Position numbers and translations under genes: made by a program. A model generated the notes under the pieces. That model was not told the origin of the DNA. It was given only the letters and a program-made list of their open reading frames with translations, and made no database searches. DNA of 62,105 nucleotides, filler included. It is 5 parts of 5 records of this genome, joined end to end, with 100 filler letters (N's around TTAATTAATTAA, not from the genome) between each part and the next. Parts side by side here need not be neighbours in the genome. Positions count along the whole stretch, not along the records: positions 38,055 to 46,687 come from SRR20825010_4863; 4 more parts are not named here. One strand, 5' to 3'. Positions within the stretch are counted from its first letter, which is position 1. Each line of letters begins with the position of its first letter. Below are positions 6,282-56,410 of the stretch, one piece after another.

Positions 6282-6381
6282 NNNNNNNNNNNNNNNNNNN
6301 NNNNNNNNNNNNNNNNNNNNNNNNNTTAATTAATTAANNNNNNNNNNNNNNNNNNNNNNNNNNNNNNNNNNNNNNNNNNNN
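6282..6381. other. Artificial contig linker
   Basis: N44-TTAATTAATTAA-N44, with stop codons in all frames. Base composition changes sharply across it. Confidence 0.98.
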
Positions 6382-6755: not shown

Positions 6756-7991
6756 ATGTCCCAGCCGATGACTTACACAAACCTTCTTGATGCCAATATT
6801 TTTCCTGCGGAACGTGGAGCGCCGCATGAATTGTTCGATATGTGGCGTGAAACTGATCCTGTTCATTGGAATCCCGCAATCACCTCCTATGTTTCGGCGC
6901 AGCCGAACTCGTCGATGACAAAGGGGTTCTGGGTACTTACTCGATATCAAGACGTCTTTGATGTCTCCCGGGATCAGGAAAAGTTCAGTTCATACGAAGA
7001 TGGCTTTGTCATTTGGGATCCGGGTCCGGAAGAGCTTTTCCGGCAGCGCGCAAATATGATGGGAATGTTGCCTGAGGATCACAGAAATACAAAACAGGTT
7101 GTGCTCCCTGCTTTTTCTCCAAAGGCTTTGAACGCTCTGGTTCCAGAGATTGACAAGCTGGCGGAAGAGATTGTGGACGGAATTGTTGAGAAAGGTAAGT
7201 GTGAGTTCGTCTTCGATGTTGCCTCGAAGCTGCCGGTTTATACATTTTGCGAACTCATGGGTATCCCGGAAGAGATGAGATCAAGGGTGGTGGATTTGGG
7301 CAATGCGATGGCGGATGCGGAGTCGCCAAGGCCGCTTGAATTTGATCCGACAATGGAACTCTTCGCGATCTCCGAGCAAGTATGTGCGCAGAAGCGTCAG
7401 CATCCCGATGCGTCGCTTCTAAGCACCCTCGTTCATGACAAATCTGGCAATCTGGATCAAATGAACATCAATATGTTGTTCCTTGTCTTCGCGATTGCCG
7501 GACACGAGACAACACGAAGCACCGCTGCGCATTTTATGTACCTGATGAAGAGCTATCCTGAACAATATCAGTTGCTACTGAGCGACATCGATAAGTATCT
7601 CGAGAACGCCATCGAAGAAGTCCTGCGTTATACCTCTACGACAACCAACTTTGCGCGTACAGCAACAGTGGACACAGATATCGGTGGCCAGCCTGTGAAG
7701 AAGGGCGACAAAATCTATTTGTCTTATGCGGCTGCCAATCGCGATCCAGACGTGTTTGACGAGCCGCATGTTTTCGACATCACACGAGACAATGCGCGAA
7801 AGCATCTTGCATTCGGAACAGGCCCGCATGTTTGCATTGGCGCGCGGTTGGCGCGTATGGAACTCAGCGCACTACTTAGGCAAATTATCACACGCATTCC
7901 GGATTTTGAGATCGCTGGCGAACCGCAATGGCTCCGCTCAATTTGGTTTAATGCCATCATGCGCTTGCCGATTAGTTTTAAATCGCATTGA
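6756..7991 (+). CDS. Cytochrome P450
   Basis: AGHETT (I-helix), EEVLR (ExxR) and HLAFGTGPHVCIG (heme-ligating Cys). Start at ATG 6756 after the purine-rich GAGGAGCAGGA. Confidence 0.95.
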   Translation: MSQPMTYTNLLDANIFPAERGAPHELFDMWRETDPVHWNPAITSYVSAQPNSSMTKGFWVLTRYQDVFDVSRDQEKFSSYEDGFVIWDPGPEELFRQRANMMGMLPEDHRNTKQVVLPAFSPKALNALVPEIDKLAEEIVDGIVEKGKCEFVFDVASKLPVYTFCELMGIPEEMRSRVVDLGNAMADAESPRPLEFDPTMELFAISEQVCAQKRQHPDASLLSTLVHDKSGNLDQMNINMLFLVFAIAGHETTRSTAAHFMYLMKSYPEQYQLLLSDIDKYLENAIEEVLRYTSTTTNFARTATVDTDIGGQPVKKGDKIYLSYAAANRDPDVFDEPHVFDITRDNARKHLAFGTGPHVCIGARLARMELSALLRQIITRIPDFEIAGEPQWLRSIWFNAIMRLPISFKSH

Positions 7992-8246
7992 GCGCCAGCC
8001 CGCGTTTAATGCGATCGAACTCATTTCGCATTTGGTATGACTGAGTGAGATGAGTTGCGACTAGCAAAACTCTTTAATGTCTGCTCATAGCGCAGAACGG
8101 ACGTAAATAACGGTATTCGTGCGTCGGGTTCGTCTAAACTCTGATGAGCGAAATCAGGAACTTATGACGTGTGACCTAACTAGGCTTATATGAATGACCT
8201 TTTGAGTCACGTCCGGTCTGTGCCCACAATAGTCGGTATGGTCTTT

Positions 8247-9023
8247 CTACGCCAAAACAATGGCCTTGCCGTTTTTTCTGTGCATGACCTCCACCGGAAC
8301 ATCGAAGCATCGTTCCAGATTGTCGGCGGTCATAGTCTCTTTTGTCGGTCCTTGCATGAATATGCTGCCCCCAACGAGTAAGGCTATGTCGTGAGCATAG
8401 TCGGCGGCGAGATTGAGATCGTGCAAGACGGCTAGCACTCCCACACCTTGATCGGCGAGCTCGCGGACGGATTTGAGAAGAACGCGACGGTGGCGCAGGT
8501 CTAGCGCCGATGTCGGCTCGTCCAGAAAAAGATATCGTTGCGAGAGATCGTTTGATCGTCGCCATATCTGGGCGAGTGCGCGGGCATATTGAACGCGTTG
8601 GCGCTCGCCGCCGGACAGGGTTTGGTAGAGGCGCGGTAGCAGTGAAACAATGTCGGCCATCCTACATGCGGCTGCGACTGCTTCGTCGTCATCCAGCGCA
8701 TCTTGTGTTGTGGCATAGGGCAGGCGGCCGAGATTGACGACTTCGCTAACGATGAAAGCAAAGTCGAGCGATGAGTTTTGCAGCAACACGGCGCGTTGGC
8801 GGGCGAGGGCCATTGGCGACAATTTGCCTAGCGGCGTATCGGCAATTTTGATTTCGCCTTCATCGGGCTGGCGCTCCCCTGACAGAACGGAAATGAAGGT
8901 CGATTTGCCTGCGCCATTAGGGCCGAGCAGAGCCGTCAAGCGTCCCGGTTTGATCGTCAGCGAGCAATTGCGAAGCAGATATTTGTCGGAGGCTTGAACA
9001 GAGATGTTTTCGGCGACGATCAC
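8247..9023 (-). CDS. hmuV: Heme ABC transporter ATP-binding protein
   Basis: GPNGAGKS, LSGGERQRV and LDEPTSALD motifs. GTG start overlaps the hmuU stop. Operon context. Confidence 0.9.
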   Translation of the reverse strand: MIVAENISVQASDKYLLRNCSLTIKPGRLTALLGPNGAGKSTFISVLSGERQPDEGEIKIADTPLGKLSPMALARQRAVLLQNSSLDFAFIVSEVVNLGRLPYATTQDALDDDEAVAAACRMADIVSLLPRLYQTLSGGERQRVQYARALAQIWRRSNDLSQRYLFLDEPTSALDLRHRRVLLKSVRELADQGVGVLAVLHDLNLAADYAHDIALLVGGSIFMQGPTKETMTADNLERCFDVPVEVMHRKNGKAIVLA

Positions 9024-36248: not shown

Positions 36249-36451
36249 TGAGTGTGCATTTCGTATGACTGGGGGGCAGGGGGGCGACCTTAGCAGGCCG
36301 GGAAGATTGGTGAAATGCCGCAAAACACAATGCAGAGACATGACTCGATAGACCGCCTTGGGGCTGATGGCTATCTGACATTGCCGCCTGCGGCCTGATC
36401 CGCTAGAAGTGGCGGCTAATCCATCAACATCTATCCAAGAGTGAGCGGCAC

Positions 36452-37954
36452 ATGGCCTCCTATCAATATGTCTATGTCATGGACCGACTGTCCAAGACCT
36501 ATCCCGGTGGCAAGCAGGTTCTGAAGGATATCCGACTGTCCTTTCTCCCCGGCGTGAAGATCGGTGTTGTCGGTCTTAATGGTGCGGGTAAGTCGACGCT
36601 TTTGAAAATTATGGCCGGCGTGGACAAGGACCACACGGGCGAAGCTTGGGCCGCAGAAAGTGCCAGAGTGGGATATCTGGCACAGGAGCCGGAACTGGAT
36701 CCTACTAAGGATGTGCTCGGCAACGTCATGGAAGGTGCTAAAGAAAAGAAAGCGCTGATGGATCGCTACAACGAATTGGCGATGAACTATTCCGACGAGA
36801 CAGCGGAGGAAATGGCCAAGCTGCAGGACATTATCGACGCACAAAATCTTTGGGATCTGGATAGTCAGGTTGAAATGGCGATGGATGCATTGCGTTGCCC
36901 GGAGGGTGATGCAGATGTGAGCAAGTTGTCGGGCGGTGAGAAGCGTCGCGTCGCGCTTTGCCAGCTTCTGCTTGCTGCGCCCGATTTGCTGCTGCTTGAC
37001 GAACCGACCAACCATCTCGACGCCGAGTCCGTTGCTTGGTTGCAGTCCTATTTGAAGGAATACACAGGCACCGTGGTTCTCGTTACCCATGACCGATATT
37101 TCCTCGACAATGTGACGGGTTGGATTCTTGAACTCGATCGTGGTTCTGGCATTCCTTATGAGGGCAACTACTCGTCGTGGCTGGAGCAGAAGTCCAAGCG
37201 TCTGGAGCAGGAAGGTCGTCAGGACGAAGCAGTACAGCGCACCCTGTCGCGCGAACTTGAATGGATCCGTCAGAGTCCCAAAGCTCGACAGGCCAAGAAC
37301 AAGGCGCGTGTGCGGGCTTATGATGAATTGCTGGCAGAGGCGGGTAGGCAGCAGGATGGCAAGGCACAGATCATCATTCCGGCAGGGCCGCGTCTTGGCG
37401 GCAATGTGATCGAGGCGGAGGGGCTCTCAAAGGCCTTCGGTGACCGTTTATTGATCGAGGATTTGTCGTTCCAGCTGCCACCGGGCGGTATTGTCGGCAT
37501 TATCGGTCCTAATGGTGCGGGTAAGACGACGCTTTTCCGTATGCTGACAGGACTGGAAACCCCTGATGCAGGTACGTTGAAGATCGGTGACACTGTCGTC
37601 ATGGGGTATGTCGACCAGAGCCGCGATGATCTCACGTCCACGAAAACTGTCTGGGAAGAAATTTCAGGCGGAACCGATATTATCGAGCTTGGGAAAACAA
37701 CAATGCCAAGCCGCGCCTATGTCGGTGCGTTTAATTTCAAAGGTAGTGACCAGCAGAAGAAGGTGGGGTTGCTTTCAGGTGGTGAACGCAACCGAGTGCA
37801 TCTGGCCAAGATGTTGAAATCGGGGGCAAATTTGTTGCTTCTCGACGAACCGACCAATGACCTTGATGTCGATACATTGCGTGCGCTGGAAGATGCGCTT
37901 GTGGCGTTTGCAGGCTGCGCCGTCGTCATCAGCCATGATCGCTGGTTCCTCGAC
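36452..37954 (+). CDS. ettA: Energy-dependent translational throttle protein EttA (ABC-F), truncated at the contig end
   Basis: Two ABC domains, linker [18 protein letters not shown], and [12 protein letters not shown]. Confidence 0.93.
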
Positions 37955-38054
37955 NNNNNNNNNNNNNNNNNNNNNNNNNNNNNNNNNNNNNNNNNNNNTT
38001 AATTAATTAANNNNNNNNNNNNNNNNNNNNNNNNNNNNNNNNNNNNNNNNNNNN
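37955..38054. other. Artificial contig linker
   Basis: N44-TTAATTAATTAA-N44. Confidence 0.98.
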
Positions 38055-40877
38055 GAACCACGACTGCCCGAATCGGTAAAAAGGTTGGGAATCACCACCA
38101 AAAAGATATCACCGGATATGCTTCTTGTAGTGAACATGTATTCTCCGAAAAAGACCTACGATCAGACCTATATGGGGAACTATGCCGTGCTCCAACTCAA
38201 AGATGAACTAGCCCGTATCAAAGGGGTTGGGGATATACAGATTTTTGGAGCGGCCGAATATGCCATGCGCATTTGGCTCAATCCCGATAAAATAGCAACA
38301 TTGGACATTACTGCTGGAGAAGTGGTCGCAGCCCTAAGGGCTCAGAACGTACAGATTGCCAGTGGTACGTTGAACGCCCTCCCTTCCGGAAGTCAATCGG
38401 CCTTTGAGGTGAATATACAGACCCAAGGAAAACTGGTGACCACGGAACAGTTTGAAAATGTGATTATCAAATCAAGTGGGGATGGGAGAATTGTTCGCCT
38501 TAAAGATGTTGGCCGTGTAGAACTTGGTGCGCAAAACTACGCCACAAAGGGGTATTTAGGTAAGGACCCAGCCATAGCCATGCCTATTTTTCAACAACCG
38601 GGCGGGAATGCCTTGGAAACTGCTTCTCAGATTCAGGACAAAATGGAGGAACTGTCCAAAAGTTTCCCGAACGATCTTGAATATAAAATAGCGTACAATC
38701 CCACAGAATTTATCCAAAAGTCGGTCGATGAGGTGTACCGTACCATTTTTGAAGCAGTAATTCTAGTGGTCTTGGTAATTCTCTTGTTCCTCCAATCCTG
38801 GAGGGCAGCCATCATTCCGATTCTTGCCATACCCGTTTCGCTCATCGGTACCTTTGCCGTTATGCAGGCGATTGGGTTCTCGCTGAACAACCTTACCTTG
38901 TTTGGATTGGTTCTTGCCATCGGAATTGTGGTGGACGATGCCATTGTAGTGGTCGAAAATATGGAACGCTATTTGGCAAAGGGGCTTTCTCCAAAAGAGG
39001 CGGCTTTTAAGACGATGGATGAGGTTGGCGGAGCCTTGGTCGCCATTGGGTTGGTTTTGATAGCCGTGTTCATTCCAACTGCATTTTTAGAAGGTATTTC
39101 CGGACAATTTTATAAGCAGTTCGGGATGACGATTGCCGTGGCCACTGCCATATCAGTTTTTGTATCCCTTACTTTGAGCCCGGCCATGGCCGCATTGCTC
39201 ATGAAGCACGAGGATAGATCTTCAACAAAGAAGACGGCGATATGGCTGAGACCATTGGCCTTTATCGGAAACCGTTTCAACGGTTTTATGGATTGGGTTT
39301 CCGAACGCTATGGTAAGGCGGTGCAAAAATTGGTACGTACCGCCACCATGGTCATGGCAGTCTATTTTGGACTGATTGCCATTACAGGATTTGAGTTCAA
39401 TAGGGTGCCCCAAGGATTTATCCCGGCCATGGACCAGCAGTATTTCATTACCATTGTCCAACTTCCCCCGGGTTCCTCGCTGACCAGAACCGATAAGGTT
39501 GTACGTGAGGTACTTGACTTGGGCTTGGATATTGATGGTGTGGAAAATGCCGTTTCTTTCACAGGATTTGATGCAGCATCGTTTACCAATGCATCCAATG
39601 CAGCAGCCGTGTTCTTGACCTTGGAGGATTTTGACATTAGAAATGAAAAAGGCCTGGCATATGAAGATTTGTTGGGAACTGTAAGAGCAAAGTTTAGCCA
39701 AATTGATGATGCCATTGTATTGGTTATCCCGCCACCATCGGTAAGGGGTATCGGTAATGCAGGTGGGTTCAGGATGATGGTCCAGGATAGAGGGAACCTG
39801 GGAACGGAAGAACTCCTCAAGGCTACCAATGAGCTGGCCATGGCGGCCAATCAGGACCCTATATTGAACAACGTGTTCAGCTTTTTCAACAACCAGACCC
39901 CGCAATTATTCTTGGATATCGACCGCGTAAAGGCCGAAAAATTGGGAATCGATGTGGGGGATATCTTCCAATCCTTGGAGATTTACATGGGTTCCGCCTT
40001 TGTAAATGAGTTCAATTACTTGGGAAGGACTTTTCAGGTGACCGCCCAGGCCGATGCTCCAAACCGATTGACGCCCGATGATATTTCAAGGATCAAGGTG
40101 CGCAATGATAAAGGAGAGATGGTACCGTTGGGTACGGTCTCACAGCAAGAGGATATTTCCGGGCCTTCACGAATCCCTAGGTTCAACCTATATCCATCCG
40201 CTTCGCTCAACGGGGATTTTACGCCGGGATATAGTTCAGGTGAAGGGTTGGACCGGATGGAAGAATTGGCTGCGGAAATACTGCCACAAGGCTTATCCTA
40301 TCAATGGACGGAAATTGCCTATCAAGAAAGAAAAGCGGGCAATACCGCAGGTATAGCATTTTTATTAGCGGTCGTGTTTGTATTCCTTTTGTTGGCCGCT
40401 CAGTTCGAGAGCTTGGTATTGCCATTGGCAGTAATCTTTATTGTGCCTATGGTATTGTTATCCGCAATGATCGGGGTCGATTTGGCCGGATTGGACAATA
40501 ACATCATGGTACAGATTGGACTGGTAGTGCTTGTGGGACTGGCGAGTAAGAACGCCATTTTGATCGTGGAGTTCGCCAAACAATTGGAGGACCAAGGGGA
40601 AGAACTGAAAACCGCGGTAATTGAAGCATCAAAACTGCGATTGAGACCTATACTAATGACGGCGATGGCCTTCATCCTGGGTGTTGTTCCATTGGCCATT
40701 GCTACAGGAGCAGGTTCGGAATTACGCGTGTCCTTGGGTATCGCCGTATTCAGTGGAATGCTCGGCGTGACCGTTTTCGGAATTTTCTTGACCCCTGTAT
40801 TCTATTATTTGGGCAGAAAATGGTCATTAAAAAGGGCTGTAAGGGAAAATAAGGAGCTGGTTCATCAATTAAATTAA
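38055..40877 (+). CDS. RND efflux permease (HAE1/AcrB/MexF-like), 5'-truncated
   Basis: AIGIVVDDAIVVVEN, LTLSPA, GLASKNAILIVEFA and RLRPILMT motifs. Confidence 0.93.
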   Translation, partial: EPRLPESVKRLGITTKKISPDMLLVVNMYSPKKTYDQTYMGNYAVLQLKDELARIKGVGDIQIFGAAEYAMRIWLNPDKIATLDITAGEVVAALRAQNVQIASGTLNALPSGSQSAFEVNIQTQGKLVTTEQFENVIIKSSGDGRIVRLKDVGRVELGAQNYATKGYLGKDPAIAMPIFQQPGGNALETASQIQDKMEELSKSFPNDLEYKIAYNPTEFIQKSVDEVYRTIFEAVILVVLVILLFLQSWRAAIIPILAIPVSLIGTFAVMQAIGFSLNNLTLFGLVLAIGIVVDDAIVVVENMERYLAKGLSPKEAAFKTMDEVGGALVAIGLVLIAVFIPTAFLEGISGQFYKQFGMTIAVATAISVFVSLTLSPAMAALLMKHEDRSSTKKTAIWLRPLAFIGNRFNGFMDWVSERYGKAVQKLVRTATMVMAVYFGLIAITGFEFNRVPQGFIPAMDQQYFITIVQLPPGSSLTRTDKVVREVLDLGLDIDGVENAVSFTGFDAASFTNASNAAAVFLTLEDFDIRNEKGLAYEDLLGTVRAKFSQIDDAIVLVIPPPSVRGIGNAGGFRMMVQDRGNLGTEELLKATNELAMAANQDPILNNVFSFFNNQTPQLFLDIDRVKAEKLGIDVGDIFQSLEIYMGSAFVNEFNYLGRTFQVTAQADAPNRLTPDDISRIKVRNDKGEMVPLGTVSQQEDISGPSRIPRFNLYPSASLNGDFTPGYSSGEGLDRMEELAAEILPQGLSYQWTEIAYQERKAGNTAGIAFLLAVVFVFLLLAAQFESLVLPLAVIFIVPMVLLSAMIGVDLAGLDNNIMVQIGLVVLVGLASKNAILIVEFAKQLEDQGEELKTAVIEASKLRLRPILMTAMAFILGVVPLAIATGAGSELRVSLGIAVFSGMLGVTVFGIFLTPVFYYLGRKWSLKRAVRENKELVHQLN

Positions 40878-40889
40878 AATCAAGCAACA

Positions 40890-42359
40890 ATGAAAAATTC
40901 AATAATAGTAACCATAATAGCATTCCTGTTGGCTTCTTGTGGAATCACAAAAAGAGATTACAATGTTCAAAATGATGCTGGTGTGAAGCAGGATTTTCTA
41001 GCAAAGGAAATTAGTGAGAAAGCGTATACCGAAGCAGCGATAACAAAAGAATGGTGGTCAGAATTTAATGATCCCATTCTTGATACGCTCATTGAAAAGG
41101 CCAGAAGACACAATTTGGATATTAATTCGGCAGTGGCCAATTACAAGGCATCACGGGCTTTTCTCAAAGAAAATAAATGGGACCGATTGCCAACGGTGAC
41201 CGCCAATGGCAATTATACCCGTACCCGTTTGGGAGAGAATGTATTTGTTCAGGGCAGCAACCCTACCTTTAATACGTATAATGCAAGTTTTGACGCTTTT
41301 TGGGAAGCTGACCTTTTCGGTAGGGTAACCAATAGAATCAAAGGGGCGTATGCCAATAGTAATCTTGCCTTGGCTGATATGCACGGAATGTACGTAAGCA
41401 TATTTGCCGAAGTGGCCAATAATTACATGGAGCTTCGCGGTACACAATATTTGCTCGATATCGCCCAACGTAACTTACAGGGGCAACAGGAAACTTATGA
41501 GCTCACGGTCAAATTAACGGAAGCGGGTACCAGTAACAGCCTTGATGTATCCCGGGCATTGGCCCAATTGGAAAGTACCCGTGCCAGTATTCCACCTTTG
41601 GAGGCCAGGATAGAGGCATTGAAGAACAGTTTGAGCGTACTTATTGGAGAGGTTCCCGGAAATTTGGGAAATGAAGTGGTTGACAAAAAGCCATTGCCAA
41701 GCCTACCTCCAACAGTAGCTCTGGGCGATGTCAGGGAAATGCTCAGAAGAAGGCCCGATGTCCGTAGGGCGGAGGCTACACTTCAGGCGCGCATTGCTGC
41801 CTATAATATCTCTGTGGCCGACCTCTATCCAAAGATCGAGTTTGGAGGATCCGTTGGATTCTCGGCAGTCGATTTTGCGAATTTCGGTGAAAAACCATCT
41901 TTTACTTGGACCTTGATGCCCAGTATCAGTTGGGCCGCTTTTAATCTGGGTCGTGTAAAACAACAGATCAAGCGAAACGATGCACAGGCCATTGCCGCCC
42001 TCAATCAATATGAAAAAGCGGTACTGCAGGGACTGGAAGATATCAAGACCTCCTTGGCAAACTATACCAAAGAGCTGGAACGAAGGGAGATCCTGCGTAT
42101 TTCATCCGAGGCAAGTGCTCAGGCAGCAACCTTTGCCAGGCAGCGCTTTAACTCTGGATTGGACAGTTTTATTGATTACCTAAATGCTGACAACGCTTTG
42201 TTGCAGGCCGAGAATGCGTTAGCTTTAAGCGAGATTTCGTCGGCAACCTCCCTAATAGCCATTTACAAGGCCTTGGGCGGCGGTTGGGAAATCATTTCAG
42301 AAGAAGAATTGGATACTAAATATGAAAACCTGCATCTGGCCAGTGCCGATGCCAATTAA
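40890..42359 (+). CDS. Outer-membrane efflux lipoprotein (NodT/OprM family)
   Basis: Lipobox LASC, WE.DLFGR, RRRPDVR.AE and YKALGGGW motifs. Confidence 0.92.
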   Translation: MKNSIIVTIIAFLLASCGITKRDYNVQNDAGVKQDFLAKEISEKAYTEAAITKEWWSEFNDPILDTLIEKARRHNLDINSAVANYKASRAFLKENKWDRLPTVTANGNYTRTRLGENVFVQGSNPTFNTYNASFDAFWEADLFGRVTNRIKGAYANSNLALADMHGMYVSIFAEVANNYMELRGTQYLLDIAQRNLQGQQETYELTVKLTEAGTSNSLDVSRALAQLESTRASIPPLEARIEALKNSLSVLIGEVPGNLGNEVVDKKPLPSLPPTVALGDVREMLRRRPDVRRAEATLQARIAAYNISVADLYPKIEFGGSVGFSAVDFANFGEKPSFTWTLMPSISWAAFNLGRVKQQIKRNDAQAIAALNQYEKAVLQGLEDIKTSLANYTKELERREILRISSEASAQAATFARQRFNSGLDSFIDYLNADNALLQAENALALSEISSATSLIAIYKALGGGWEIISEEELDTKYENLHLASADAN

Positions 42360-42424
42360 AACTTAGGTTGTAAGGTGAATCGGATATTTTGGACAAAAAA
42401 TAGCACCGATCCACTACAAGATAT

Positions 42425-43312
42425 ATGAACAAGGCCGATATACCTGTTTTTGAAAATACGAACGATTTACATGAGGCCATTGGTTTTGCCCATAGGAGCC
42501 ATATGCCTAATTTTGATGTGTTTCCAGTAGAAGATATGGAAGCTTCATCGAGAAGGTGTATGCCGCCCTATCGTCAGGGATTTTATCAGATAGGGTTGTT
42601 GAACTATACAGGAAAAAGTCAACTCAATCTCAATACCGATACCTTGGAATTGAATGAGTTTCCTTTATGGTTTGTGGTTCCGGGACAGGTGTTCTCTTGG
42701 TTTAGGGACGAAAAGATGTCAGGATATTATGTGATGTTCAGAAAAGAGTTTTTGATCAATACTTTTCCGGATTTGCAGAAAGATTTTCCTTTTTTGAAAA
42801 TGTCCGAAAACAATGTGCTGATGCTCACCAAAGAAGAACATGAGTCGTTGTATTTTGATATGGAACGGATGCATTCGGTATTTAAAAACCCGCATCCGTA
42901 TCAAGAGAAAATGTTGGAGGGAATGCTCGGTTCCTTACTGTATTTCTGTAAGGCAATCCATGAGCGCCATAAAACAACGGAAAATCACCTGAGCAGGTCA
43001 CAGATCATTGCAAATCAGTTTGAAGCGTTGGTGGACAAAATGTATGTGGATACCAAAAACGTGAGCGACTATGCCTAAGAATTGAACATAACACCGAATT
43101 ACCTGACCACGACCATTAAGAAATTGACAGGCAAGAGTGCCAAGGACATTATTCAGGAACGGCTTTTGATGGAAAGTAAAAGCCTGTTGAAATATTCAGG
43201 GTTGGATATTGCTGAGATAGCCTATCGCCTAAATTTTCAAGAACCGACACATTTTACTAGGTTCTTTAAAAATTTGAGCGGAGTAACGCCAAATCAATTT
43301 AGGAGAATGTAA
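42425..43312 (+). pseudogene. AraC-family regulator interrupted by an in-frame TAA (43076-43078)
   Basis: The 217-aa and 76-aa ORFs are in the same frame (...VSDYA*ELNITPNYL...). Together they form one typical ~295-aa AraC protein, and the stop falls inside the HTH domain. Confidence 0.8.
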
Positions 43313-43411
43313 ATAGTTTTATACCGATTTGACCAACAATAAATTGAGAAAAGAAATACTATTAAGAATGAAAAACCATATGCTAAATTTGTAACATGAA
43401 ATAAATGAGTA

Positions 43412-44092
43412 ATGAAGAATGATAAATATGTTGCCGTTGTAACGGAAGCAGGTAACGGACTGGGCCACAAGTTTGCCAAGATTTTATTGGAGAATGGGTA
43501 TGAGGTTGTGCTTGCGGCATGCGGGAAAAGCTTTGAATTACTCTCCAAGGACGGGGAGGATTTACACGGATATCAGCTTTTGAAAATCGATTTTAGTTCG
43601 GAAGAGAGTTTACGTGTGCTTGAACATACCATTAGGGAATCATACGGCAAATTAGATCTGCTGATCAACAATGCTGAAATTGTCAATGGTTTTGGCCACA
43701 AGATAGATCAGATCAATATCGAGGATATAAAGGAGGTCTATGAGATTAATTTTTTCTCTATCATTCGAACCATACAAACACTTAAGCCTTTATTGAATCA
43801 GAGTGACGAACCTAGAATCATTAACATCACAAGCTCGTTGGGTGACATCAATAAGATGAAGGATGAAAGTTTTTGTTATTCTGGATATAGTCTTACCGCT
43901 TATTCCACTTCCAAAGCAGCACTTAGCATGTTTACTCATTTGCAGTGCAAGGAATTTAAGCCTTCTAAGATAAAAATGTACAGTTTTGATCCTGTAAACA
44001 TGAAAAACTGTACTTACAACTCCGTAGCCATTTGTGATGGCATCAAAGATGACTTTATTTCCCTCATTGAAAGAAAGCAAAAGAGAGCGTAG
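43412..44092 (+). CDS. Short-chain dehydrogenase/reductase (atypical Gly motif)
   Basis: LDLLINNA, IINITS and YSTSK motifs. The cofactor motif reads TEAGNGLG. A TAAATTTG promoter element lies at 43384-43391. Confidence 0.8.
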   Translation: MKNDKYVAVVTEAGNGLGHKFAKILLENGYEVVLAACGKSFELLSKDGEDLHGYQLLKIDFSSEESLRVLEHTIRESYGKLDLLINNAEIVNGFGHKIDQINIEDIKEVYEINFFSIIRTIQTLKPLLNQSDEPRIINITSSLGDINKMKDESFCYSGYSLTAYSTSKAALSMFTHLQCKEFKPSKIKMYSFDPVNMKNCTYNSVAICDGIKDDFISLIERKQKRA

Positions 44093-44532
44093 ATTGCCTC
44101 ATTGAAAATATTATGTAAGCGCAACTTGTATTTGTACAGCTTAAGTTAGACTACCTTTCTACATCCAACAATTTAATTTTCGCATTCAATTGGTTCATAA
44201 ATAGATATGGATGATTATGTGTCTGAATATGAAAATCGATAGGGATGCGATGCGTTCTTCATTTTTTTTATAAAAAATATTAGAAAAAAGCAAAGGTAAG
44301 CAAAACGGCGAAGTCCGTTCATATACAGTGGTTTATAAAATGTGGGGCTGAAATTGGAGGTCACTGTACTTTAGGTTTTAGGCTTAAAATGACAAGGTTG
44401 GGTTACTAAATCGTTACTGGTAACCAATCTATCGCATGAAGCATAATTACTTATATTTCAGTCTTTTGCATTCCTTTTCATCTTTCCCTGTAACTCATTG
44501 AAAGTTAATTTTAAACATTAAAAGATTGAGTT

Positions 44533-45798
44533 ATGGAACAGACGAAAAGGTCAACGTTTAAGCTCCTTTTCTACTTAAAGAAAAACGAGCCGAAGAAGAA
44601 TGGCACAGTTGCCATTATGGGGCGTATCACTATTGACGGAAAAGCTGCATCATTCAGTACAAAGCTGGAAATTGACCCCAATAATTGGGATTTGAGACAT
44701 GGAAGGGTCGCCGGGAAAAGCAAAAAGGCATTAAGCACCAATACAAAATTGGACAATATCCGGTTACGGATCGACAGGTATTATGAGGAATTGCTCAAAT
44801 ACGATGGTTTTGTCACCCCGCAAAAATTGAAACTTGCTTTTTTGGGTGTGGGTATTATGGAAGATGCCATTCTAAAGGTATTCCAGGCACACAATGACGA
44901 TTTTGCAAAAATGGTAGCCAAAAAGGAGCGTTCCCAAAGCACCTATGATAAATATAAAATCGTGTACAACCACCTTGCAGAGTTTATCAAGCTACGATAT
45001 TTAAGGGAAGACATGGCTTTCAAAGAGCTTACTTCCGATTTTATCCGTGAATTTGATTTCTACCTGCGTGTGGACAAGGAATGTACCCATAACACGGTTT
45101 GGGTTTACACCATGCCCGTTTTACGTATGGTGGAGCTGGCCATCAAAAAAGGCATGATCCGCAATAATCCTTTCGAGGATTACGAAATCACCATGAAGGA
45201 GGCTGACAGGGGTTTCCTATTGAAAGAAGATGTTGAGAAAATTATGCTTTGCCAACTTCCGAAGAAAAGGCACGAACTTGTCCGAGATCTCTTTGTTTTC
45301 AGTTGTTTTACGGGCTTGTCCTATGCGGACATCAAAAAACTGAAGCGGAACAATATTCAGAATTTCTTTGACGGCCATCAGTGGGTTATCAGCCGGAGAA
45401 AGAAAACCGATGTTTCGTCCAACGTCCGTTTATTGGAAATACCCAAGAAAATCATTGAGAAGTATTTCGGTACAACAAGGAACGAATTTGTTTTTCCGGT
45501 TCCATCCAATGCAACCTGCAACAATCATATCGCCAGGATTATGGCAATTGCAGAGATTACTACCGAGCAAAAGGTAACCTTCCACACGGCACGCCATACG
45601 TTTGCTACAATGGTGCTTACGGCTGGTGCCTCACTTGAAAGTGTACAAAAAATGATGGGGCATACGAACATTACCACCACTCAGATCTATGCCAAAATAC
45701 TCAATGAGAAAGTTGGTATGGACATGGATATTGTTGCCAGAAATTTAAAGGCAATGGAAGTTTCCTTTAGTGCGATGGAAGAAAAAATTGCAGTTTAA
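44533..45798 (+). CDS. Tyrosine site-specific integrase (Bacteroidota transposon type)
   Basis: N-terminal arm-binding STFKLLFYLK..RITIDG, then FSCFTGLSYAD, FHTARHTFAT and MGHTNITTTQIYA. Confidence 0.93.
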   Translation: MEQTKRSTFKLLFYLKKNEPKKNGTVAIMGRITIDGKAASFSTKLEIDPNNWDLRHGRVAGKSKKALSTNTKLDNIRLRIDRYYEELLKYDGFVTPQKLKLAFLGVGIMEDAILKVFQAHNDDFAKMVAKKERSQSTYDKYKIVYNHLAEFIKLRYLREDMAFKELTSDFIREFDFYLRVDKECTHNTVWVYTMPVLRMVELAIKKGMIRNNPFEDYEITMKEADRGFLLKEDVEKIMLCQLPKKRHELVRDLFVFSCFTGLSYADIKKLKRNNIQNFFDGHQWVISRRKKTDVSSNVRLLEIPKKIIEKYFGTTRNEFVFPVPSNATCNNHIARIMAIAEITTEQKVTFHTARHTFATMVLTAGASLESVQKMMGHTNITTTQIYAKILNEKVGMDMDIVARNLKAMEVSFSAMEEKIAV

Positions 45799-45825
45799 TC
45801 AGATTCATTCCTTTCCAACAATTAT

Positions 45826-45854
45826 AGAGCAGGATTTTATGATCCTGCTTTTTT
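45826..45854 (+). terminator. Intrinsic terminator after the integrase
   Basis: Stem AGCAGGAT (45828-45835) / ATCCTGCT (45842-45849) followed by a T-run. Confidence 0.8.
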
Positions 45855-46128
45855 ATTCCCCATACTTCCTATAGCCAAAGCACATTTACCTTCCGATCCG
45901 ATCCCTCCGCTGTAAAAGAGCTTATGGCTATTTCCCGGACAGAAGATTGAAAAATGTTGCCCTGTGCCTTTCCCTTGCATAACAATTTTTCAAACCTCTG
46001 TAGGTGCGGCTTTCACAGCCACACAACTAAAAAAGGATTTAAAAAATTCTGGAATTGGAAGTGTTATTTCAATTCATCCCGGACCATTTCCCAATGCCAT
46101 CTTCCCGGCTTCCACACCTTTTTTATCC

Positions 46129-46321
46129 AAAGAGCCAGTATGCTTTATTGTTCCATTTCAAGAGCAAAGGTATTACCGTGTCCTTAACGCATCCCCAAGG
46201 TCAGGACAAGTTTGGAAAAAAATCTCCACCCGTTGGGTAGTATTTCCCTCCAAAACCTTGGTGCTGCTATACACGGACCTTTTATGCTCGTGAAACGAAA
46301 CATAGCATACTCCGGCTCTTT
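46129..46321. repeat. Long imperfect inverted repeat (~190-nt rod-like hairpin) upstream of ssb
   Basis: Nested pairs AAAGAGCC/GGCTCTTT, AGTATGCT/AGCATACT, TTTCA/TGAAA, GAGCA/TGCTC, AAGGT/ACCTT, CCGTGT/ACACGG, CCAAGGT/ACCTTGG, TTTGGA/TCCAAA and ACCC/GGGT. Confidence 0.85.
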
Positions 46322-46458
46322 AAACGAATAAAAAAAATGTCAGATATGAAGATTACAAGCATTGGAAATGGTAATGAAACGAAACAGCACCTCCTCTCAT
46401 TACCGAATAAATCAAACAAAAAAACAAATCAAAATCAATCTCTAAAAATTCAAAAATC

Positions 46459-46687
46459 ATGAACATCACAGGAAGACTAACAAGGGATGCGGAAGTAAAA
46501 ACCCTTGACGACAACAGACAGGTGGTAAACTTTTCGGTAGCGGTAAACGACAGCTATCAAACCAAACAGGGCGAACGGGTAGAGCAAACCGCCTTTTTCG
46601 ATTGCTCTTATTGGATAACCCCGAACGTAGCCAAGATACTCACCAAAGGCTCTTTGGTAGAACTCACAGGCAGGGTAAGCGTAAGGG
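46459..46687 (+). CDS. ssb: Single-stranded DNA-binding protein (mobile-element type), truncated
   Basis: MNITGRLTRDAEV..VVNFSVAVN..LTKGSLVELTGR is an SSB OB-fold signature. Confidence 0.9.
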
Positions 46688-46787
46688 NNNNNNNNNNNNN
46701 NNNNNNNNNNNNNNNNNNNNNNNNNNNNNNNTTAATTAATTAANNNNNNNNNNNNNNNNNNNNNNNNNNNNNNNNNNNNNNNNNNNN
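46688..46787. other. Artificial contig linker
   Basis: N44-TTAATTAATTAA-N44. Confidence 0.98.
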
Positions 46788-56310: not shown

Positions 56311-56410
56311 NNNNNNNNNNNNNNNNNNNNNNNNNNNNNNNNNNNNNNNNNNNNTTAATTAATTAANNNNNNNNNNNNNNNNNNNNNNNNNNNNNNNNNN
56401 NNNNNNNNNN
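56311..56410. other. Artificial contig linker
   Basis: N44-TTAATTAATTAA-N44. Confidence 0.98.

Follow-up and report, generated by a model that had tools for sequence, protein, structure and literature searches.

Single-strand origins (sso) of rolling-circle plasmids and of ICEBs1 are strand- and orientation-specific hairpins that start complementary-strand synthesis, some of them via RNA polymerase. The Frpo element of the F plasmid was reportedly described by Masai and Arai in 1997 as both a promoter and a primer site. According to passages of PMC9849209, the Frpo stem-loops rebuild −35 and −10 boxes, with Frpo2 lying upstream of ssb; they are needed for early expression in recipients, and second-strand synthesis turns them off. 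The literature searched contained no paper linking Bacteroidota to single-stranded DNA (ssDNA) promoters, and the term "Bacteroid-" does not appear in the main text of PMC11541004.

Here, we describe a hairpin of about 190 nt in an integrative conjugative element (ICE) of Bacteroidota. It resembles Frpo on every point that sequence can show and is outside the Frpo sequence family. As with Frpo1 and Frpo2 (ssi-type elements of F-like and IncI plasmids, following the sections of PMC9849209 and PMC11541004 that describe them), a long imperfect stem-loop of the template strand would hold a host promoter in its stem, upstream of ssb or other establishment genes and facing them, and this promoter is predicted to be off in duplex DNA. 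The differences are that BLAST against plasmid records finds no sequence similarity; that the box is of the Bacteroidota −7 type, whereas Frpo has sigma-70 −35 and −10 boxes; that the hairpin sits in an integrative element at one copy per element, whereas Frpo is present in several; and that it lies 17 to 34 kb from the presumed oriT, behind the tra operon, with a −33 partner that is not established. A distant BLAST of positions 46100 to 46345 against 72,556 plasmid records returned a single Prevotella record and no enterobacterial plasmid. With the sso as generally described, the hairpin shares its strand and orientation specificity and its residence on a mobile element; it differs in that its position is fixed, immediately upstream of an operon whose leader is conserved. 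A first-pass annotation of the locus had interpreted it as an ssDNA promoter, an interpretation that is partly supported by our analysis; the computational tests that the annotation suggested all turned out to favor it.

Setting of the hairpin

The stretch of DNA that was analyzed (the window; 62,105 nt) consists of contigs joined at 6282 to 6381, 37955 to 38054, 46688 to 46787, and 56311 to 56410, each joint being made of 44 N's, TTAATTAATTAA, and another 44 N's; features are not readable across the joints. The contig with the hairpin spans 38055 to 46687, and its end cuts off ssb at 46687, with the N linker following from 46688. Using the upstream integrase as the query, we collected 60 loci in named Bacteroidota genomes. 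The best of these, locus L001 in Zunongwangia pacifica (genome G001), has 96% integrase identity and about 98% spacer identity to the window and served as a proxy. The features that frame the hairpin are as follows.

44258 to 44263, no strand: approximate left end of the ICE, where similarity to related elements begins
44533 to 45798, plus strand: tyrosine integrase, 421 amino acids (Pfam Arm-DNA-bind_5, Phage_int_SAM_5, and Phage_integrase; 96% identity to the L001 integrase)
45829 to 45854, plus strand: terminator-like 7-bp stem and T run 3′ of the integrase gene, read from the sequence, with the stem kept in relatives
46129 to 46321, minus strand: imperfect hairpin of about 190 nt, with selection for structure on this strand, identified by single-strand folds, a helix check, and covariation
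46322 to 46458, plus strand: conserved leader between the hairpin and ssb, identified by alignment, which accompanies the hairpin family whichever gene comes next
46459 to 46687, plus strand: 5′ part of ssb, 76 codons (Pfam SSB, E = 5e-15; the full gene in L001 encodes 129 amino acids)

BLAST of the window's contig against the loci gave matches to nine listed elements that all begin between 44258 and 44263, and we thus place the left end of the ICE there. The hairpin is 1.9 kb inside this end, between the integrase gene and the ssb/DUF932/PRTRC operon, the order from the left end being integrase, terminator-like stem, hairpin, conserved leader, and ssb. In L001, ssb is followed by DUF932 and then by the PRTRC cassette (PRTRC_E and ubiquitin-like, E2-like, and ThiF-like proteins). 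A weak Rfam match to L20_leader at 45829 to 45854 is based on the 7-bp stem alone. To the left of the element, 38055 to 44257 appears to be ordinary host DNA, judging from a list of its ORFs, which include an outer-membrane efflux-type protein, an AraC-type regulator, and a short-chain dehydrogenase-like protein; the Rfam scan reported no tRNA gene in this interval.

Within the leader, an ORF of 41 codons (46337 to 46462) begins 16 nt past the hairpin and overlaps the ssb start (ATGA). Among 38 homologs, its first codons (MS.MK) are kept and the conserved downstream nucleotides are read in differing frames; as the frame is not kept, the conservation of the leader is at the nucleotide level, and the ORF is probably not a conserved protein. 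The leader also includes CACCTCCT, which we take to resemble the 3′ end of 16S rRNA. On the other side of the hairpin, the plus-strand sequence TTCCACAC at 46110 to 46117 precedes it and has a counterpart in locus L008 at about 7505 to 7515. The plus-strand motif TTCCACA, whose minus-strand form GTGGAA lies immediately 3′ of the hairpin, precedes both of the hairpin families described below. It is nearly invariant across 39 sequences and may be a separate recognition site. Locus L008 also has an Rfam Flavo-1 RNA on the minus strand at 2539 to 2632 (65 bits; gathering score, 42), located 3.4 kb upstream of the integrase and outside the conserved part of the element.

The minus strand folds best, and the fold is conserved

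All nine nested helices listed in the first-pass annotation were recovered, with 54 of 54 pairs being Watson-Crick complementary. We folded both strands of 46110 to 46340 as ssDNA with DNA parameters, as that annotation had proposed. Both folds are far beyond those of shuffled sequences (0 of 200 shuffles as good in either case), with the minus strand folding best, at −52.6 kcal/mol (z = −9.4) compared to −43.5 kcal/mol (z = −7.4) for the plus strand. In a scan of 1,397 windows across 77 kb of the G001 element, the hairpin was the top minus-strand outlier (z = −6.0) and also gave the largest difference between the strands. It is single copy per element.

To define the family to which the window's hairpin belongs, we combined the window, 7 sequences from genomes, and 31 metagenome loci found via the DUF932 gene, giving 39 distinct sequences. 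The minus strand is the more stable one in 38 of these 39 and, when the second family described below is included, in 76 of 77 distinct copies. The consensus fold (alifold) of the window's family shows the same asymmetry, reaching −64.0 kcal/mol with 63 pairs on the minus strand and −35.2 kcal/mol with 51 pairs on the plus strand. Of the alignment cells in the consensus structure of the minus strand, 183 hold G-T pairs versus 8 with A-C, an A-C being a G-T on the plus strand. As the consensus structure had been predicted with G-T pairs allowed, we also built a Watson-Crick-only scaffold, and at its symmetric interior positions, the counts were 44 G-T versus 0 A-C.

The covariation anticipated in homologs was also present. 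Of 2,393 cells in the named structure, 97.0% are paired, compared with 41 to 50% when the partners are slid by one to three columns. Double-sided changes occur at 15 of 63 pairs (148 cells), and the covariation score is 0.196, versus 0.096 in shuffles (0 of 500 as high) and 0.04 to 0.08 in the slid controls. The structure of the hairpin and its strand specificity are solid. The changes are not spread evenly: the distal helices covary freely, and on both arms no sequence change is seen in the proximal helices, where the promoter-like box lies. This contrast indicates that the sequence of the hairpin is read as well as its shape. Invariant alignment columns also cluster at the apex.

46216 to 46245, minus strand: apical stem-loop of near-invariant sequence

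Two simple readings of the region can be set aside. Protein-coding selection, which the annotation had named as a possible objection, is out: ORFs 45964 to 46293 and 46337 to 46462 have no Pfam match, the alignment of the hairpin region contains many single-base indels, and the frame of the leader ORF is not kept. An intrinsic terminator is likewise out, a T run being absent after the hairpin on either strand. A suggested search of Rfam 15 matched no family to the hairpin, either in the window or in L008, L011, and L153.

A second hairpin family occupies the same slot

In about 40 genome loci with a 70 to 72% identical integrase, only the first ∼95 nt past the integrase are common with the window; the loci then carry a different long hairpin at an equal distance. 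This second family is unrelated in sequence to the first. Its outer stem is common to its members, and the inner part occurs in at least two versions. Each of its 38 distinct sequences folds more stably as the minus strand, with a margin of 1.4 to 11.2 kcal/mol. The outer stem has double changes at 12 of 28 pairs and a covariation score of 0.208, versus 0.02 to 0.03. When this heterogeneous alignment is folded as a consensus, the two strands are alike (−24.0 versus −24.1), as the inner parts do not align, and the strand asymmetry of the second family thus rests on the folds of the individual sequences.

Both families occupy the slot after the integrase, 110 to 140 nt ahead of the gene that opens the operon, be it ssb or DUF932. 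The hairpin family and the downstream gene are freely combined, with both families found before ssb and both found before DUF932 without ssb. A match to one of the hairpin types is present in 69 of the 75 metagenome loci that extend 300 nt or more upstream of DUF932; five of the six others have <600 nt upstream, and L107 has none in 1.3 kb. A relative of the window's hairpin that shares its box and has a similar apex is found in the Prevotella nigrescens record. There it follows an integrase module, and the genes immediately downstream are a hypothetical gene, PcfK, and PcfJ. Since elements whose operon begins with DUF932 or carries PcfK/PcfJ have it, the hairpin marks the head of the operon rather than ssb. 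The tie to ssb made in the first-pass annotation thus holds for the window, where ssb is the next gene, but more generally the hairpin belongs to whichever gene comes first in the operon.

Several observations concern the elements themselves. The P. nigrescens record (L153) is filed as a 164-kb plasmid and includes a 5S rRNA gene at 7239 to 7350; therefore, it may be a chromid or a piece of a chromosome. A 1.2-kb segment (7200 to 8400) is identical in L002, L003, L004, L005, and L046, from five genomes of different genera (Chitinophagaceae, Pedobacter twice, Filimonas, and an unclassified member of the Bacteroidetes), which points to a very recent spread of one element. L023, L024, L025, and L027, from Pedobacter, Leadbetterella, Flavobacterium, and Flavobacteriaceae, form a second such group. 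In Niabella defluvii (G006), contig C1 holds at least six DUF932 gene copies or fragments, several of them split or with stop codons and each with a relaxase nearby, i.e., many decayed copies of the element family. A protein search of plasmids with DUF932 gave 117 records, mainly from Actinomycetota and Burkholderiales and all with <60% identity, and no published link between DUF932 and a leading region was found in the literature searched.

A one-sided −7 box in the stem

In flavobacteria, the −7 box of sigma-A promoters has the sequence TAnnTTTG at positions −12 to −5, as given in the part of PMC9723704 used here. The stem of the hairpin contains the following promoter-like features.

46165 to 46172, minus strand: TACCTTTG, which matches TAnnTTTG exactly and lies on the 3′ arm of the folded minus strand, the would-be non-template arm
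46196 to 46198, minus strand: TTG, a candidate −33 element (not established) on the arm of the −7 box and 23 nt upstream of it
46290 to 46293, plus strand: putative +1 of a plus-sense RNA, assuming that the box functions once the minus strand has folded

The motif positions agree with those previously annotated, including a degenerate copy, GACCTTTT, on the plus strand at 46276 to 46283. Within 45800 to 46460, i.e., the ∼660-nt spacer between the integrase and ssb, TACCTTTG is the sole exact TAnnTTTG on either strand. Six of seven related loci likewise have a single exact box, and L039 has one extra that is not conserved. Among the distinct members of the window's family, 38 of 39 have the exact TACCTTTG, and it never occurs on the plus strand.

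The second family presents its box at a fixed place on the same arm, as TAACTTAG, TACCTTAG, TACTTTGG, or TACATT[A/C/G]G in 37 of 38 sequences. Here, T1, A2, T5, T6, and G8 are constant, variation is seen at positions 3 and 4, which the consensus leaves free, and position 7 is A, G, or C and, in our reading of the alignment, varies with its partner on the other arm. The exact TAnnTTTG was never found among the 38 distinct sequences of this family. When the motif is relaxed to TAnnTTnG, it is present on the minus strand of 76 of 77 distinct hairpins from both families and on the plus strand of 1 of 77. The asymmetric conservation that had been predicted for TAnnTTTG is thus borne out on the minus strand alone in the window's family, but in the second family it applies to TAnnTTnG. 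Compared with a Bacteroidota sigma-A promoter, the likeness lies in the exact box of 38 of 39 members of the window's family and in the same five fixed letters in 37 of 38 members of the second; the differences are that the box is on the strand opposite to that of the genes, that no −33 is conserved, and that the second family lacks T at position 7.

The canonical spacing between TTG and the −7 box in Bacteroidota promoters is roughly 19. In the window, the spacing is 23 nt on the box-bearing arm, as the annotation had it, and 15 to 16 nt on the opposite arm (where it had given 15). Manual counts in the alignments give about 20 to 23 nt in the window's family and 24 to 27 nt in the second, and a −33 element at a conserved spacing was not found in the alignments of either family. 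Of the two promoter boxes expected in a stem that faces the downstream genes, the −7 box is thus seen, one sided and correctly oriented, and a −33 box at a fixed spacing was not found.

The minus strand is probably the strand transferred

The operon is read from the minus strand as template, ssb being encoded on the plus strand. Across G001 to G006 and the Prevotella record, DUF932 or ssb shares its strand with the nearest relaxase gene in 13 of 13 copies, a count that leaves out one copy with no relaxase on its contig. The relaxase lies 17 to 34 kb downstream in 11 of the 13; in the other 2, which are broken copies in G006, the nearest co-oriented relaxase is 5 to 6 kb upstream. In G001, a tra operon (TraG/VirB4 to a ParA-like TraA) is on the opposite strand between the PRTRC and mob genes, and a PF03432 relaxase and a coupling protein are on the strand of ssb. 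The point from which the two operons, tra and mob, diverge is about 28 kb away from the hairpin.

In CTnDOT-type elements, oriT is at the point where tra and mob diverge, according to part of a review (PMC3809561); the same part does not give the direction of transfer. By analogy, we presume that oriT is in the spacer that separates traA from the mob genes. In G001, this spacer is poorly conserved, matching one of five other relaxase loci over 59 nt, and no nick motif could thus be derived from it. The second most structured region of the G001 element, at about 36411 to 36690 (joined coordinates of L069 to L072; offset C12:253686), lies between a small mob gene and the relaxase gene and is a candidate part of oriT or of a relaxosome site.

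Given the co-orientation of the relaxase and the general rule that the relaxase gene enters last, the minus strand is probably the transferred strand. The annotation had left open which strand is transferred, with the plus strand counting against its proposal; the 13 of 13 relaxase orientations favor the minus strand, although through a general rule. The operon is not a classical leading region, since it is 17 to 34 kb from the presumed oriT and behind the tra operon.

Proposed mechanism and alternatives

It is likely that the hairpin functions in ssDNA, whether as a promoter or in priming only. The best-supported mechanism, which we favor by a modest measure, is an Frpo-like ssDNA promoter, with the binding of RNA polymerase and the start site inferred from the arrangement of the stem. 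The minus strand would fold as it enters the recipient or when it is displaced in rolling-circle replication. The folded 3′ arm would then offer TACCTTTG as the non-template strand over the 5′ arm, and RNA polymerase would start near 46290 and proceed past the hairpin base to transcribe the leader and then the operon. With the box taken as −12 to −5, +1 is predicted opposite about 46160 on the box arm, a base that is paired with about 46291 in helix 46156-60/46291-95. With the box on the 3′ arm, the polymerase would copy the 5′ arm toward higher coordinates, so that the RNA would be plus-sense, that is, ssb mRNA. SSB and other establishment proteins would in this way be expressed early, before the complementary strand is made, and the same transcript may also prime complementary-strand synthesis. 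As the box is on the strand opposite to that of the genes it would serve, it would work only through the fold; in duplex DNA, the promoter would be off because the plus strand has no −7 box in the direction of the operon.

The main rival is a single-strand origin, in which the folded minus strand recruits RNA polymerase or a primase/primosome and has no role in the operon. The two roles are not exclusive, and Frpo itself was reportedly described as both a promoter and a primer site. An origin of this kind would suit a single-copy hairpin that is the most stable strand-specific one in 77 kb and whose fold is strand and orientation specific in 76 of 77 distinct copies, and the near-invariant apex could be a recognition or stop signal. 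Nevertheless, the hairpin is always found at the head of a co-oriented operon, 110 to 140 nt upstream of its first gene, and this in three gene contexts, a position that a pure origin would not need. A conserved leader travels with it, and no second consensus −7 box is available to the operon in about 660 nt. We therefore consider priming alone to be unlikely.

A structured minus-sense RNA, for instance a regulatory RNA lying antisense to the leader of the operon, is in our view quite improbable. G-U pairs in such an RNA would produce the same strand asymmetry and covariation as those observed, and contigs from RNA libraries do cover the region: in four of four RNA runs examined, from three studies, strand-less contigs making up small shares cover relatives of 46052 to 46497. 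One of these contigs spans the integrase terminator region to ssb, with DNA carry-over possible; if the contigs are RNA, the duplex element is transcribed across the hairpin too, which would speak against a promoter confined to ssDNA. As the contigs show neither ends nor strand, we give this coverage no weight. Against a minus-sense transcript, no exact minus-strand −7 box lies on the right side of the hairpin, whether in the window or in six of seven family loci, and the one in L039 is not conserved. Moreover, no T run follows the hairpin on the minus strand, Rfam has no match, the invariant box inside the stem would lack a role, and the placement of the hairpin would be unexplained.

An ordinary duplex promoter reading leftward from TACCTTTG, or a protein-bound palindrome or cruciform with a secondary hairpin potential, is very unlikely: the box does point to 46160 and on to 45860, where blocks of the spacer are conserved across both families, but neither the wobble pairs on one strand only (183 versus 8; 44 versus 0) nor the compensatory changes across about 60 pairs would be explained, and the TTG-TA spacing of 20 to 27 bp is above the canonical value of roughly 19.

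Implications for conjugation in Bacteroidota

We tentatively hold a broader possibility: conjugative elements of Bacteroidota may carry a modular switch that operates only in ssDNA, with at least two unrelated hairpin families presenting the sigma-A −7 box on the transferred strand. A similarly tentative range for such a switch would take in Flavobacteriia, Sphingobacteriia, Chitinophagia, Cytophagia, and Bacteroidia. If this is true, the switch would activate the establishment operon (SSB, DUF932, the PRTRC ubiquitin-like cassette, or PcfK/PcfJ) in the minutes that precede synthesis of the second strand. It would then be the first ssDNA promoter outside the sigma-70 −35/−10 type and the first in integrative elements of Bacteroidota.

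Conjugative elements of Bacteroidota spread resistance and metabolic genes among gut, soil, and marine bacteria, and their establishment in recipients is little studied. The hairpin offers a concrete and cheap experimental target for asking whether early expression from ssDNA is general in conjugation or a peculiarity of enterobacterial plasmids. It also bears on how the unusual sigma-A of Bacteroidota reads a promoter shown in a hairpin and on the roles that DUF932 and the PRTRC cassette may have in establishment.
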